In this document: one piece after another, positions 11,600 through 34,482 of the stretch | Position numbering within the stretch: the stretch's first letter is position 1 | How the letters are laid out: each line of letters begins with the position of its first letter | Origin: Nitrosopumilaceae archaeon | GTDB taxonomy: Archaea > Thermoproteota > Nitrososphaeria > Nitrososphaerales > Nitrosopumilaceae | DNA length: 64,000 nt | Assembly (NCBI GenBank): GCA_965208905.1 | Contig: OZ242365.1 | Coordinates: forward strand, 1,664,001 to 1,728,000 | Reading direction: 5' to 3' | Program-made: the position numbers and the translations under genes | The notes under the pieces: generated by a model | What the model saw: the letters and a program-made list of their open reading frames with translations, nothing else | Told to the model about the DNA's origin: nothing | The model's database searches: none

Positions 11600-13519
11600 T
11601 TACTGTGTACGCTCAGTCCAGATACATGCATTGGGCGATGTGGCCAGATATTCGATGCTGACAACGCCAGCATTGGTTATTTCAGTCTGTGAGGCGAGGA
11701 AGTTTTCATAACCAACTATGAAGTCGGATGTGGTCATCAGGTTGCCCGTCTTTGCCGGTGCGCCAAACTCTGTTGTTATTATCGTGCCTTCGGAGTTGTC
11801 ATGTATGCTGATCTTGTCGAAGGTGCTGATGAACGTATTGGATGTTGCGGCCTCAAACTTTGTTATCGTCACAGCCTCACTACACGTCACATCTATCGGT
11901 CGTACATCATACCCAACACTCCTTGCATCTACAGTTATGCCCAGCAACTCTGTCTGCAACCGAACATCACCACTTGGATGTGATCCACTCATGGTGAATG
12001 TACAGTCGTTATTTGTTGTGTCTGTAAGTATGGTAAAGTCCACGTCGAATACCTTCGCGGCCTTTTCTGCCGCAGTCGGCATCGACCGATCAGCAAGTGT
12101 TAATGTGTTGTTCCAGTCTGCAAGTTCCACACTGATGTTATAGTCTGCATTGTTTCCACTCAGTTTTACCAGTTCCGAGCCCGGTACAGGCTTGTCAAAT
12201 ACATGATATACTGGGGCGTTTGTAGGCTGGAACTTTTGGTTAACCATCTCTACGTTTATGGGTGATGTCAGGGCAATCAGTGTATCATGGTCCCTCTCAT
12301 CGTTTGCATAATCTGGACTGGTGTTTACATTGTAGATGCCGTTGTCCGCCTCGTTGAGTACTATATCAAGTTCGGTTGGCGTATGCTCAAACAAACATGA
12401 TATTGTAGCTGTTGCGTATGCATCATCGTTTGCGTCCATCGGCCATGCTAGTATATCACCTACAGTAACGGGGAAGCTAAACTCCCTATATCCCAAGGTG
12501 CCCTGTATGGGTGTTGGTTCCTCTGGTGTGGTGGGCGTGGTTGGTGTGGTAGGCGTAGTGGGTGTTGGTGTGGTAGGCGTGGTTGCTGGCGGTACTTGTA
12601 ATAGTTTGGCAGCTTCTGCTATACGACACTGATCATCATGCCATACGGCCTCACTGATGCCAACAAACACCCGTATATTGCAGTCTTCGGCATCAAAGGT
12701 GCCATGCCCTGCATTTATCATGGTCTGCGCAACATCATACGTATTGCATTGTACGAGCGCCTTTGGGGGCGAGGCCTTTGGCCGTGTGTCGGGTATGACG
12801 GTTATTGGCGCATCACCGCATATGTCAAGCAGATAACTGATTGCAGCCCGGCCGCCAGGCTCAGAAAGACCCGGCACGTCCACGAACGCAAGATCATATG
12901 TGTCTAATACACCATCACCGTCTGTGTCTATCTGTATGGTATCACCATCTATTATGTGCCTGTCAGTTACTACTGGTGCGCCTGGTTGTGTTTGTGTAGG
13001 TCCGGGTTTTGGTGTATGACCCGTGTCGGCCACACATACACCACCCTCAAAGATGGTGCCCTCACCGCAGTATGATATCGATATGTCTGCTATACATGTG
13101 TCCAGGTGCTGGATAGTACCCTCACCACATGAAATCTTCGCCTCGCATATGCCTGCCATATTTACCTCGGCATCACATCCGACTATCTCGGCCACGCATA
13201 TACCACCAATGGGGTATGTGCCCTCGCCGCAGACCTGTCCAAGCAATGCTGACTCAATGTTCTTCAAAGCTTGCGCATTCTCCTGTAGTGTTACCTTGTT
13301 CTCGTCCACTGATGCAACTATGCCGCTCATCCCGTCTAACGCGACGCGTACCTCGTCTATCAGATCATTCAGTGTCGGTACTATCTGGCTTATTGTGCTT
13401 GATATCCGCAACGTCGAATCATAGATGTCGCTAATCAATTCGGTGTTTGACTGTGCATAGGCCGGAGCCACTGATATGACCAGTAAGGCCAACAGTGCTC
13501 CGGATATTATTTTTCTCAT
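11600..13519 (-). CDS. Secreted protein with coiled coil, Cys repeats, thermonuclease-like domain and Pro/Thr linker
   Basis: Signal peptide ending AYA; CGEGT repeats; IIDGDTI...LAFVDVP SNase-like; (PTT)n linker. Confidence 0.75.
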   Translation of the reverse strand: MRKIISGALLALLVISVAPAYAQSNTELISDIYDSTLRISSTISQIVPTLNDLIDEVRVALDGMSGIVASVDENKVTLQENAQALKNIESALLGQVCGEGTYPIGGICVAEIVGCDAEVNMAGICEAKISCGEGTIQHLDTCIADISISYCGEGTIFEGGVCVADTGHTPKPGPTQTQPGAPVVTDRHIIDGDTIQIDTDGDGVLDTYDLAFVDVPGLSEPGGRAAISYLLDICGDAPITVIPDTRPKASPPKALVQCNTYDVAQTMINAGHGTFDAEDCNIRVFVGISEAVWHDDQCRIAEAAKLLQVPPATTPTTPTPTTPTTPTTPTTPEEPTPIQGTLGYREFSFPVTVGDILAWPMDANDDAYATATISCLFEHTPTELDIVLNEADNGIYNVNTSPDYANDERDHDTLIALTSPINVEMVNQKFQPTNAPVYHVFDKPVPGSELVKLSGNNADYNISVELADWNNTLTLADRSMPTAAEKAAKVFDVDFTILTDTTNNDCTFTMSGSHPSGDVRLQTELLGITVDARSVGYDVRPIDVTCSEAVTITKFEAATSNTFISTFDKISIHDNSEGTIITTEFGAPAKTGNLMTTSDFIVGYENFLASQTEITNAGVVSIEYLATSPNACIWTERTQ

Positions 13520-30308: not shown

Positions 30309-30590
30309 TCTGCACGCAGTCCTGCCCGGACGCGCCGTAGAGTCCCGGAGCGCTCCCGAATCCACATTCATCTCCAAGGGGAATCATACAGAAAAGTACA
30401 CAGCCTCGGCTGTACACTTATCCCTTTTCTGACGGCCTCGTTGTATGGTGTACAGCATGGAGGGTGTTGGCTTGTAGCCCTCCTTATGCCCTGGCCGTCT
30501 TAGGACGACGTTCCCCACCACCCGATACAGGATATTCCAGGCTCCTCTCCCGGAGTCCTGTCCTCAGGATTCATGTACCGACCTTGCGGT

Positions 30591-31224
30591 TTAGACGAGG
30601 TCGTTAAACGCCTTGGTCATACCCGTAAGCAACTTACGGACAAACTCCTTTCTGTCGGTCATACCAAGGCCATACTTGTCAATGTTTCTTTCATATTTGC
30701 TTCCTTTCCTGTGGGCATCCGCACTAGACCTCAAATTCTGGACCTGTCGCAGGAGTGAAATGATATCTGTCGGTAACGATTCATGTTTGAGGAATGCATC
30801 AAGCACTGTTATGCTGCCCTCCTTCTTCAATTTCTCACACTCAGTATCCACATGCTTGAGTAATTGCTCCTTGTTTATGGAATCGGGAAGCAGTACCGCC
30901 AAGTAGTTGAACTGCCTCTCAAACTCGTCAGGGTCATCGTTCAGCGGAATCCTGATGCCCTTCTCCTTGTGAGCATCCTCTTCATGGAGTTGCAGAAATA
31001 GTCTGAAGCCGAACCGACTCTCGAACCTTTCTTGAAAGTTGCACCAAGACTCTTTGAACTTATCTACCACATCATCTGAATCTACAAACACTCCATCAAA
31101 ATCCCTGGCATAACGACTCTCAGTGATACCACCCTCTGGTGGTACATTATATATTTTCCAGTGTTGTTGTTCATTTTCCGGTAGACGCTCTTTAATATCC
31201 CCCAAATAAACCTGCACCAATTCT
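30591..31224 (-). pseudogene. C-terminal half of a gene split by the 31225-45895 element
   Basis: ORF begins at the inverted repeat; VYLGD...LPENEQQHWK; LRSSADAH HEPN-like motif. Confidence 0.7.
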
Positions 31225-31416
31225 TGAACTGTTCAGTTAACAGCGCCTGTTCAGTTATAGCGCCCAGAGTGGAAACATGGGTCGTGCACGATCAGGCGTG
31301 TGGAGTGGAAATGAGGTCAAAATTCTAGAGTGGAAACGGTGGTCGTATACCTAGATTTCTAGTCCAAGTCACAAATTTCCCACCTTTGTATATGTTACAG
31401 TTTCTTACCAGAAGCT

Positions 31417-31577
31417 ATGTGTCGTTGTTATATCGGCGACACATGTACTCTTCCTGTTGGACCTGAGAGTCGACAGGAACTGGCCCCTCCGAGGGCGCTT
31501 ACCAGAATGGCTCAAGGTACGTGAAAAGCTTCAGCCCCTCCGAGGGCGGATGGAAGTTTACCATGGTCAGGTCCGAC
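31417..31577 (+). ncRNA. Predicted IS110 bridge RNA
   Basis: 5' hairpin, closing stem GGACCTGA/TCAGGTCC, two arms with large internal loops capped by identical GCCC-CTCCGA-GGGC hairpins. Confidence 0.75.
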
Positions 31578-31599
31578 TATCCACTAAAAAGGAGGTGAA

Positions 31600-32687
31600 A
31601 TGAAAAAAAGAATTGCATTACATCGGAATTGACGTACACATGAGAAGATGTGTGGCCACCACCAAGGGAAGATCCAAAAAGGTGTTAGACCAGTTTGAGT
31701 TCAACAACGACCTGCACGGGATACGTGCGTTCGCCAGCAGAATGCTGCGCCGCGAGTACACGCCGGCGGTAGCCGTCTTTGAGTCCACCGGTAACTATTG
31801 GAAGGTACTCCACAACGAGCTAGAGGAGACAGACATCAAGCCGGTCCTGGTCAACCCGTACGACCTCAAGATCATCACTCAGGCAAAGTTTAAGGACGAC
31901 CGGGTTGACTCTGAGAGGTTGTCCGACCTAGCCAGGGGAGACCTGTATAGACCATCCTACGTTCCCACCCAGAAAGAGATGGACCTGCGCGAGCTTACCC
32001 GCACCCGCCTGGATTTGCGGTACGACGCCACCGAACACAAGAACCACGTGCACGCTATCCTGACCAAATATCCGCTCAAGAGGCCCCCGAATATCTACAC
32101 GGCCAAGGGTATGGAATGGCTGCAGACCGCACCCGTCCGGAACTACGACCGAATGGCGCTTGACTCCCACCTGTATATCCTTAATGCTACCGAGAGACGC
32201 ATATCCCTGCTGGAAAAGGAGATCTGCAGGATAGCCATCTTTGACCCGCGGGCCCGTCTTATGATGACCATGCCCGGGGTGGGACCGGTCACCGCGGTGA
32301 CCGTCCTGGCGGAGATAGGGGACACAGGCCGGTTCGCCAGGCCTGAGCAGCTGACCGCCTACGCGGGTCTGGTGCCGTCCCACAGGAACAGCGCAGACAC
32401 AGTCCGGACCGGCGGCATCACCAAAGTCCGGATCCCGCTGGCTCAGGAACGCGGCCGTAGAGGCGGCGTTCGTGGCTGTCCGGCACGACCCATACCGCAA
32501 GGGTAGATACGAGCGACTGGCCGCCAGGAGAGGCCCGCAGAAGGCTCGGGTCGCCGCGGCTCGGGAGATGCTAGAGGACATGTGGTACATGCTGACCAGG
32601 AACGAACCATATAACCATCCCAACTAAACCATGACCAACCGCAAGATGACCAACGCCAGGCGCGTGGCCAACCGGGATATTGCCTAG
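31600..32687 (+). pseudogene. IS110 recombinase, frameshifted
   Basis: YIGIDVH, FESTG, KDDRVD, PGVG, YAGLVPSHRNS; frame change near 32425; ATG 31600 after GGAGGTGA is out of frame at an A7 run; TAA at 32625 may be premature. Confidence 0.85.
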
Positions 32688-33123
32688 GGTATACCGGTTC
32701 GGGGGCGTTTCGCCGCCCCCTGCCCAGCGAGGGGCGGCTCAACGCCCTTTGTACCTCCCCGCCGTCTGGTTGCTCAAAAATAATGCAGTAGAAAGCCAAC
32801 CATCTGCAACTTCACGGGGTTAACACCTGCCCTTTTCCCCGGGGACGCGTGGGGGATTCTGCGCACCATAATTTCCTATACGCCCGCAATCCACTTGGAA
32901 CATACACTCAAACCACTTTGGATGGGGTTTACATACTGTATAATGCCGTATTGGTGCCCCCATCTTGCAAAAAGATACTCTAATACTTAAAAATCAGACA
33001 GACCCATACCATTTGGACCGGATCAAATGTATTACCAACACATAACATCAATGGGTTTTAGCAACCCAAACACATGGAAGTTCCCAATGTTTTTAACTAT
33101 CTTCATCTTGACGCCGTCTGGGT

Positions 33124-34482
33124 TTACACATCCTTGACTTTCACCATGCCTGACATCCATGGGTGAACTAGATCAAAGTACGGATACTCGCCCACTTTCT
33201 CAAAGATATGGGAGAACTTGGCTCCGGGTGCGAACAGGCCGCTGTCGAACATGCCGTTCGGCCCTCCCTCCGTTAGCACACCACTGATAACCGTATGTGC
33301 GGCCACATCGTCATTTGTCCAAACTACCTCTACGCCAACATCCACGGTAATCGTATGTGGAACATAACACCCCTTCGTCTCCTCGCAGCCGGGCACCGAA
33401 GATCCTTCGGTGATGGTTACGTGCGCTGGCGACATGTGAGGTATAACTGGCCGTGCGGAATCGCCAAAGAATAACACAAAGTCATACGGGTTGAGTCCTG
33501 CACGATTTATCAAACTGATAGATTTTTGTATTCGGGCTTTGGTAGAGCCTAGATCCGTGTTAAGAAAGAGTTTGCCCGCCCCTCTTTTGGCAGTGAAAAC
33601 TCTTCCGTTCTGGTGTATTGGTTGAGTGTTAAGTATTGCGTTGTTTGGACCTATCGGCACAGGACAATGCGATTCATTAAGGTAATCTTTGCTGACCAGC
33701 CAGTTGGCCACACCAGACAACATGTCCACCCATGATTTCAGTTCTACTCTGCTACCATCCGGACATATCAACTCCTTAGGGTATCTCATACCTTTCGTGT
33801 ATTCTATGTCGGGTAGCTTGACATCACCATCTGGACGGATCAGCCTTGGTGCCGTAGCCGGCCTGTCGGTATCGGGGGTGGGTTTTTTGCGCTTTGCCGC
33901 GGGCACTGACCGCGCAGTGGTAGGGGCTAGAACATGGCCGCCGCCCACACGCTCCATCAGTACTACGCGTTTATCATACATCTGTATCTTGTATAGCTCC
34001 ACCGTGGAGTCATTCTCCGCTCCGAATATCTGGTATTTGTCGAACTCCGGCGCCATTATAATCGCGTACATTTTTTCCCAATCAAACGAATTCTTTTGGC
34101 GCGAATTGTCCTTCTTTTTCTTATACAGCAACACGAGATCAGCATTGTGCACCCTCATGGAGTTCAGGTAAGTCCTAGCCTGGTCTACCGCCCCTGCGCT
34201 ACGTTTGTTTTTGTACTCCAAGGCAACAAACGTGTTCAGGCCTGTGTCGAACGCGACGGTGTCGGGGCGAAGCTCGCCTCCGGCCATCTCTTGGAACTCT
34301 CTTGTTAGGAATACCAGGCCGGGAAACAGTTTCTCAATGTTGGCTTCGATCAACCTGTGCATCTGGTCTTCGTTATCAAATGCATAAGCCCTCAACTCAC
34401 CCAGGGTGGATTTGTCCGACAGCTCGAACATTCGAGTGTTGTGTGTATCACCGAAACGGTATCCTCTTGCCATTGGCACCAT
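33124..34482 (-). CDS. PD-(D/E)xK nuclease (NucS-like) fused to a C-terminal cupredoxin domain
   Basis: NEDQMH...RPDTVAFD...ALEYK...QARTY; C-terminal GSSVPGCE...WTNDDVAAHTV...YFDLVHPWM. Confidence 0.8.
   Translation of the reverse strand: MVPMARGYRFGDTHNTRMFELSDKSTLGELRAYAFDNEDQMHRLIEANIEKLFPGLVFLTREFQEMAGGELRPDTVAFDTGLNTFVALEYKNKRSAGAVDQARTYLNSMRVHNADLVLLYKKKKDNSRQKNSFDWEKMYAIIMAPEFDKYQIFGAENDSTVELYKIQMYDKRVVLMERVGGGHVLAPTTARSVPAAKRKKPTPDTDRPATAPRLIRPDGDVKLPDIEYTKGMRYPKELICPDGSRVELKSWVDMLSGVANWLVSKDYLNESHCPVPIGPNNAILNTQPIHQNGRVFTAKRGAGKLFLNTDLGSTKARIQKSISLINRAGLNPYDFVLFFGDSARPVIPHMSPAHVTITEGSSVPGCEETKGCYVPHTITVDVGVEVVWTNDDVAAHTVISGVLTEGGPNGMFDSGLFAPGAKFSHIFEKVGEYPYFDLVHPWMSGMVKVKDV

Follow-up and report, generated by a model that had tools for sequence, protein, structure and literature searches.

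What directs an insertion element of an archaeon to its site, and does the element encode the guide itself? The question is raised by a 64,000-nt stretch of DNA (hereafter the window; positions 1,664,001 to 1,728,000, forward strand, of contig OZ242365.1, assembly GCA_965208905.1) from a Nitrosopumilaceae archaeon, in which a first-pass annotation made from the letters alone had proposed an IS110 element whose bridge RNA carries guides to the element's own junctions. Bridge and seek RNAs entered the literature in 2024, with nearly all examples taken from bacterial elements. The analysis reported here makes it highly likely that the window holds an IS110-family element with a two-loop bridge RNA and the target CTTACC-AG-TTCC, probably non-autonomous in this genome.

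Identification of an archaeal IS110-family element

The element occupies window positions 31412-33080 on the + strand and measures 1,669 bp with one core copy counted. Its open reading frame (ORF) at 31613-32506 matched PF01548 and PF02371 with E values of 1.6e-23 and 2.7e-17, past the curated Pfam cut-offs, and the recombinase is related to the transposases of IS621 (E 1.9e-14) and ISCro4 (E 2.1e-13), both with solved structures. The motifs GIDVH, ESTGNYW and KxDxxD are present in the window ORF and are invariant or nearly so across 17 relatives, and the serine of NSA/NSG in the window recombinase aligns with the serine of ESGS in IS621. A catalytic role of the DEDD-type acidic residues and of this serine is described in parts of PMC11208158. 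The host genome consists of one 2.21-Mb contig, and its 16S and 23S ribosomal RNA genes are archaeal. Both the family and the archaeal host, which the first-pass annotation had assumed, were thereby confirmed.

Named protein relatives at 40-52% identity came mostly from metagenome-assembled genomes (MAGs) of Nitrosopumilaceae or Thaumarchaeota. Of the 401 genomes of the class that were sampled, 71 have the protein family at E <= 1e-40, as do 22 of 81 genera; both counts take in the source genome and one unpublished genome (G291), the latter supporting no other claim made here. Three close relatives (L010, L011 and L042) lie on contigs binned as Dehalococcoidia and Poribacteria MAGs, a placement that may stem from faulty binning of host-associated metagenomes or from transfer between organisms. 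The host genome has two more IS110-family genes, both distant (26-29% identity to the relatives used), at C1:1780349-1781392 and C1:572450-573524; a frameshift splits the latter.

Empty sites set the ends and the core

In a genome of the same genus (G008), the two flanks of the window element are joined directly (...GTTTCTTACCAG|TTCCTAATG...), and no match to this protein family was obtained in G008 at E <= 1e-40. A single AG stands between CTTACC and TTCC in this empty site, whereas the occupied site has AG at both junctions; the comparison shows insertion without duplication beyond the shared core AG. A second empty form, on a metagenome contig (X5), joins 31410 to 33081 with one other letter between them, which is the same 12-nt layout as in G008 with one core base changed. 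The empty sites thus give CTTACC-AG-TTCC as the target, ATGGA-AG-AAGCT as the donor and 31412-33080 as the element. The left target arm CTTACC (31404-31409) and the right target arm TTCC (33081-33084) belong to the flanks, and the core copies (gene strand AG, minus strand CT) lie at 31410-31411 and 33079-33080, not at 31413-31414. Inside the cores, the left end (31412-31446) starts with AAGCT, and the right end (33070-33080) consists of ACACAT (33070-33075), GGA and the right core AG.

Three full copies of the element are present in the genome: the window copy (A), a copy 100% identical to it (B) and one 96% identical (C). Their flanks are unrelated apart from (C/G)TTACCAGAAG at the left side and TTCC at the right, so that (C/G)TTACC precedes all three copies, as it does the single AG of the G008 empty site. 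Among relatives, the left junction reads LT-AG-A-N-N-YTAT... and the right junction ...ATGGG-AG-RT, with AG at the left junction in 31 of the 32 relatives tabulated (AT in L043).

The first-pass annotation had set the left end 3 nt further inward, at a CT starting at 31415, with CTTACCAGA-AG-TTCC as the rebuilt target and ATGGA-AG-CT as the rebuilt donor. This register has its attractions: CTTACCAGAAG stands ahead of CTATGTG in all three copies, a 10-nt string in one of the RNA loops described below matches the whole of that flank, and CTTACCAGAAGC stands at some other transposon ends that have no IS110 element. It is nevertheless contradicted by the orthologous empty site, in which CTTACCAG is followed directly by TTCC, and AAG is absent from the X5 contig too. 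The rebuilt target and donor are therefore each wrong by AAG; neither word occurs in the genome (0 occurrences each), whereas TTACCAGTTCC occurs there unoccupied 6 times. Moreover, the two bases before YTAT vary among the relatives (CG, TA, CA, TG) and the right junction is always AG, so that one shared core is obtained only in the register shifted outward. There is next to no chance that the earlier register is right, and the ends given by the empty sites are used throughout.

The left end folds into an RNA with two internal loops

Within the left end, a hairpin at 31416-31445 contains the subterminal inverted repeat ATGTGT (31417-31422), complementary to ACACAT at 33070-33075, and an AT-rich TTATAT (31430-31435), which may be a TATA box; the equivalent position is AT-rich in relatives. 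The predicted body of the bridge RNA follows at 31447-31585 on the + strand and is built of an outer stem and two internal loops, each with an inner hairpin. Folded as a single sequence, the left-end RNA was steadier than its shuffles (minimum free energy z-score -3.27), and both loops hold an identical 14-nt hairpin, GCCCCTCCGAGGGC, as the first-pass annotation had noticed.

The folding and covariation analysis that the annotation had called for was extended to an alignment of 15 relatives, which showed four helices framing two internal loops, each with an inner hairpin. This consensus structure has pairing in 96.6% of cells, and both partners have changed in 9 of its 20 pairs, a compensatory count that was reached by 0 of 500 shuffles; slid controls gave 1-4 such pairs. 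Compensatory changes were seen in all four helices.

Guide segments match the junctions and covary with them

For IS621, passages of PMC11208160 and PMC11208158 describe a 2-nt core CT common to target and donor, and handshake bases that follow the 3' side of a loop and pair with the other DNA after strand exchange. Four segments of the window RNA fall into this pattern. Loop 1, the target loop, carries GGAACT (31476-31481) on its 5' side, the reverse complement of the core AG plus the right arm TTCC. On its 3' side it carries CTTACCAGAA (31498-31507), which in the corrected register is the left arm CTTACC, the core AG and the handshake AA, i.e., the first two nucleotides of the element's own left end. 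Loop 2, the donor loop, carries AGCTTC (31527-31532) on its 5' side, which in the corrected register is the reverse complement of G-AAGCT, that is, of the core G and the left-end AAGCT. Its 3' side (31550-31558) holds ATGGA of the right end, the core AG and the handshake TT, equal to the first two nucleotides of the right target arm; the string ATGGAAG covers 31550-31556. All four strings stand where the first-pass annotation had put them and match the junctions as it had said, in the corrected register; the target and donor that it had rebuilt from them were 3 nt off. In shuffles of the 175-nt left end (n = 200,000), the four corrected guide words were found singly in 0.2%, 4.7%, 1.3% and 3.5%, and all four together in none.

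An RNA profile run over all loci except L196, which is from an unpublished genome, gave 51 matches. Of these, 44 span the RNA (7 were dropped), and removal of duplicates left 33 unique instances. L170, with a rearranged left end, was left out, and the 32 instances analysed came from archaeal genomes and metagenomes; L018 has no right end in the table, and for L019, which apparently has two candidate right ends, the nearer was used.

All four guide segments covary with the flanks or the element ends in these 32 instances. For the 3' side of loop 1, 126 of 162 variable positions match the left flank (27 distinct guides, six variable bases), with a mean of 4.8 matches of 6 for cognate and 1.9 for non-cognate pairs, and 0 of 20,000 permutations of these related sequences reached 126. 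The 5' side of loop 1 was compared with the right flank with a register of +/-1 allowed, and at least 4 contiguous pairs were found in 16 of 22 instances, against 1.8% of non-cognate comparisons (0 of 20,000 permutations reached 16 of 22). The 5' side of loop 2 complements nucleotides 2-5 of the left end, with Watson-Crick pairs in 14-18 of 19 distinct combinations per position. Its 3' side equals the right end, which is ATGGGAG in relatives and ATGGAAG here, in loop and right end alike. The handshake positions follow the same trend: the two bases after the core-pairing AG of loop 1 match the first two bases of the left end in 22 of 27 cases, and the handshake of loop 2 matches the first two bases of the right flank in 12 of 18 and 11 of 18 cases, respectively (non-cognate 0.34 and 0.39).

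The left end might instead be a mere leader or promoter, with the site chosen by protein-DNA contacts and the string matches arising as by-products of the terminal repeats. The element does possess subterminal inverted repeats; a permissive Rfam search of 31000-33500 returned no family match (one chance-level match was unrelated), and no RNA-library contig lay over the RNA region, the two RNA contigs recovered (metatranscriptome X23, a relative about 92% identical) covering 32072-32470 and 32694-33069. Against this, the loop bases covary with flanks at independent insertion sites, the pairing of the helices is kept through compensatory changes, and the matches stand at the loop positions predicted from IS621, handshake dinucleotides included. 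A mere leader or promoter is accordingly very improbable, and the covariation in relatives supports the two-loop bridge RNA with junction-matching guides that had first been proposed.

The target lies at the tips of other transposons' inverted repeats

In this genome other transposons supply the natural target, namely the 12 bp at the very outside of their inverted repeats (GGAACTGGTAAG), as indicated by the site of copy B, the tips of a miniature inverted-repeat transposable element (MITE)-like element, and the flanks of copy A and of a related contig. Copy B (L002) is inserted 4 bp inside the right inverted repeat of an element of about 6.4 kb (region C1:1368398-1376530), which has inverted repeats of about 46 nt and a flanking 8-bp duplication, CTGTGCAT. 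The left flank of copy A and the flank on the X6 contig resemble the inverted repeat of this host element. The word TTACCAGTTCC was found unoccupied 6 times in the genome, with about 1 expected (scaled from 0.03 per 64 kb), and 2 of these 6 sites are the outer tips of the inverted repeats (about 55 bp) of a MITE-like element of about 210 bp at C1:959931-960140, both tips of which equal the 12-nt target. IS4321 and IS5075 reportedly also take the terminal inverted repeats of other transposons as their target.

The two tips of the element of about 6.4 kb differ in their last 4 nt (GCTT and GGAA), and only the GGAA tip fits the IS110 target. One unoccupied target (C1:497526-497536) stands in coding-looking sequence, where GGAACTGGTAAG would read G-T-G-K; by eye, it looks like an ATPase Walker A motif (GPPGTGKT). 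Another of the six unoccupied sites lies in the window, where the target-like TTACCAGTTCC at 12166-12176 on the + strand is preceded by T and not by C or G.

The copies diverge as a mosaic and share a broken recombinase gene

Copies A and C (L003) differ at 65 positions, all outside 31405-31666, which holds 0 differences (0%). The remainder is uneven, with 32 differences in 31667-32325 (4.9%), 3 in 32326-32689 (0.8%) and 30 in the 3' tail (9%). Conservation within the element is lowest in this 3' non-coding tail (32688-33069), which holds 30 of the 65 differences. The mosaic suggests that gene conversion has occurred among the copies, and the frameshift described below may have spread in this way.

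The recombinase gene is preceded by a ribosome-binding-like AGGAGGTGA at 31590-31598, ahead of the ATG at 31600; the region to 31615 also contains an A-run (31603-31609) and an in-frame TTG at 31613. The gene itself (31613-32687, + strand) has its ancestral stop TAG at 32685-32687 and is broken. Up to three lesions had been suspected, and three were located by comparison. The first, relative to the closest intact relative, is an extra A in the run 31603-31609, which parts the ATG from the frame; it may be harmless, because the TTG at 31613 is at the position where most relatives start. The second is an extra A at 32423-32425, a frameshift that precedes the conserved GSxWLRxAxVEAA stretch; it is present in X1 contigs (X1 holds 96% of the sampled words of the window) and absent from X5, X6 and X23 contigs. 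The third is TAA at 32625-32627, where relatives have Glu, which may be of small consequence because one relative naturally ends nearby. Copies A and C have all three lesions in common, and all three copies carry the one frameshift. From these sequence comparisons the element is therefore most likely non-autonomous or dead in this genome. Intact natural relatives exist, namely a protein 95% identical (P0001) and the contigs without the extra A, so that the enzyme repair envisaged by the first-pass annotation is unneeded.

If ribosomal or transcriptional slippage occurred at 32423-32425 and 31603-31609, the recombinase would still be made and the element would be autonomous. In favour of slippage are the presence of one frameshift in all three copies, the 4%-diverged one included, the identity of A and B, which nevertheless lie in different flanks, and the gene differences that separate A from C (16 synonymous, 19 non-synonymous), a larger synonymous share than random change would give. 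However, relatives in three other runs do not have the extra base, the lesion segment is nearly identical in A and C (3 differences in 364 nt), as if gene-converted, and six perfect target sites stay unoccupied. The frameshift site, ACCAAAGTCC, is to our knowledge not a recognised slippery motif. Slippage is thus improbable, and non-autonomy is retained as the reading of the three copies.

Beyond the three full copies, the genome has a solo left end that has decayed (D) and a divergent relative that is a pseudogene (E). In the region C1:137526-140326 (L004, L006, L007), a decayed solo left end has a mutated loop 1 guide, TTTAACAGAA, and stops just past its ATG at unrelated DNA with a reverse-strand ORF. 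Adjoining it is a pseudogene relative (68% identity) with a loop guide, TTGAACAGAT, that fits the pseudogene's own left flank. To the left of the window element lie two dispersed repeats, one at 30400-30542 with at least 10 further genomic copies at 87-90% identity, and one at 31222-31369 with one copy at 89% and weaker partial ones, containing repeated GTGGAAA words.

Discussion

Besides the Rfam and RNA-library results given above, several observations weigh against the assignment of this element as an RNA-guided one. Empty sites were found for the locus of copy A and, in five same-genus genomes, not for those of B and C; the last 50 nt of the flank of B match only a dispersed repeat in these genomes. 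No circle junction was present among the assembled metagenome contigs, the search covering contigs only. The two X23 contigs from the RNA library could be DNA carry-over. Because the sequences compared are relatives of one another, the permutation figures make them look more independent than they are. From 0 to 3 pairs were obtained in six of the 22 comparisons with the right flank (0 in L046, L019, L016 and L015, 1 in L186 and 3 in L187), and in most relatives the 5' side of loop 2 pairs over 3-4 nt only and does not reach the core. All three genomic copies are frameshifted. The identity of A and C in the RNA region may result from gene conversion rather than selection, and the mosaic divergence therefore weakens the argument from conservation within the genome.

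With these points weighed, an IS110-family element guided by a two-loop bridge RNA is still the reading preferred here, and for transcription, enzyme binding and recombination chemistry we infer the following scheme. Encoded in the left end, the bridge RNA would measure about 140-190 nt and be transcribed in the direction of the recombinase gene. In loop 1, GGAACU on the 5' side would pair with the gene-strand AGTTCC of the target; CUUACCAG on the 3' side would pair with the left arm on the opposite strand, and the AA after it would serve as the handshake for the element's own left end. Loop 2 would read the joined ends of the excised circle, ...ACACATGGA-AG-AAGCTATG..., in which AGCUUC on the 5' side would pair with G-AAGCT and AUGGAAG on the 3' side with the opposite strand of the right end, followed by UU as the handshake for the right target arm. 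With the minus strand as top, the 'left' guide that reads the target would be the short one (4+2) and the 'right' guide the long one (6+2). On the model of IS621, a tetramer of the DEDD/Ser recombinase with this RNA would exchange strands at the core AG/CT and insert the circle without target duplication past the shared core. Intact relatives are in circulation among related populations, while the copies of this genome are frameshifted.

The class of mechanism is already known. What the locus adds is an archaeal clade documented with exact ends, an empty site and about 27 natural guide/target pairs, and natural evidence from archaeal elements that handshake guides are conserved beyond bacteria. 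Intact relatives are a possible source of compact recombinases. On the reading of the clade as a third architectural class (see below), it would also offer a naturally occurring bridge system whose left guide is short and whose right guide is long, a candidate new programmable recombinase. A transposon aimed at the inverted-repeat tips of other transposons also matters for the plasticity of the genomes of these archaea. No published description of the RNA of this clade was found in literature on bridge RNA or IS110 combined with archaea or ammonia oxidisers, although the supplements of Durrant et al. may list it. A preprint by Vaysset et al. reports 662 archaeal IS110 recombinases, in passages that do not treat the RNAs.

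Comparison with known systems

As in IS621, the RNA is located in the left end, upstream of a DEDD/Ser recombinase, and has two internal loops, each with an inner stem-loop; the 3' side of a loop ends in AG, after which come two handshake bases that guide to the non-cognate DNA, and a 2-nt core CT is present in target and donor, with no further duplication on insertion. The IS621 rules (Durrant et al. 2024, PMC11208160; Hiraizumi et al. 2024, PMC11208158) fit exactly when the minus strand is taken as top (target GGAA-CT-GGTAAG, donor ...AGCTT-CT-TCCAT...) and only then, so that the recombination sites are inverted relative to the genes. That the core reads CT on the minus strand, in the orientation opposite to IS621 relative to the gene, was thus correctly called in the first-pass annotation. 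Consequently, it is the 3' side of the loop that reads the flank adjoining the left end, a task of the 5' side in IS621, and the 3' side, complementary to the gene strand in IS621, has the reverse relation here. The long and the short arm trade places (4+2 and 6+2 here, 7+2 and 2-5+2 in IS621), the subterminal inverted repeats extend over 6-8 bp or more where IS621 has 2-3 bp, and the protein is distant (E 1.9e-14, C-terminal half only). The promoter, if it is the TATA-like stretch, would lie wholly inside the left end and not across the circle junction as in IS621.

A Kordiimonas MAG holds 7 near-identical copies (L035-L041) of a 28%-identical bacterial relative with 12-bp subterminal repeats. 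Their left flanks end in AAAGAT, and the gene strand apparently carries AG here too, so bacteria may also have sites in the inverted orientation.

The opposite orientation has a precedent in the reversed strand order of IS1111-type seekRNAs: for ISEc11, ISKpn4, ISPa11 and ISPst6, parts of Siddiquee et al. 2024 (PMC11187229) place the complement of the top strand before that of the bottom strand. Likewise, in the window RNA the guide complementary to the gene strand precedes the guide for the other strand. The element also resembles the IS1111 group in its subterminal inverted repeats, which at 6 bp in the window (ATGTGT/ACACAT) stand at the lower edge of the range of that group (about 7-17 bp) and match at 8 of 8 positions compared in 12 relatives; like IS4321/IS5075, it has its target in the terminal inverted repeats of other transposons. 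The IS1111 group differs in encoding its RNA downstream of the gene; here it is upstream in 33 of 33 unique instances, and the left end is long in every member examined, a long right end being present in addition only in members of 1.6-1.7 kb. Protein identity to named plasmid copies was about 25% (73 bits) for IS4321/IS5075, which is no higher than for IS110-group names, and about 26% (87-100 bits) for ISEc45 and IS1000A. The best plasmid match, from a haloarchaeal plasmid, reached 36%, and similarity places the protein in neither subgroup. With ISEc21, as described in parts of PMC11187229 on this IS110-type seekRNA, the element shares an upstream non-coding region that supplies the guide RNA and a protein of the size class 345-385 amino acids, whereas the order of strand matches is bottom then top in ISEc21 and the reverse here.

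The layout read from these sequences is therefore mixed, with an upstream RNA as in the IS110 group and the strand order and subterminal repeats of the IS1111 group. One defining feature of each published subgroup fails in this clade, which bears on how the subgroups are related. A 'translocation' of the guide RNA between element ends has been proposed by Durrant et al. (in a passage of PMC11208160). It is conceivable, though we would put the chance below even, that the clade, widespread in archaea of the ammonia-oxidiser type, constitutes a third architectural class of IS110-family elements, IS1111-like in its transposon-end targeting as well, and possibly a surviving intermediate of that translocation.

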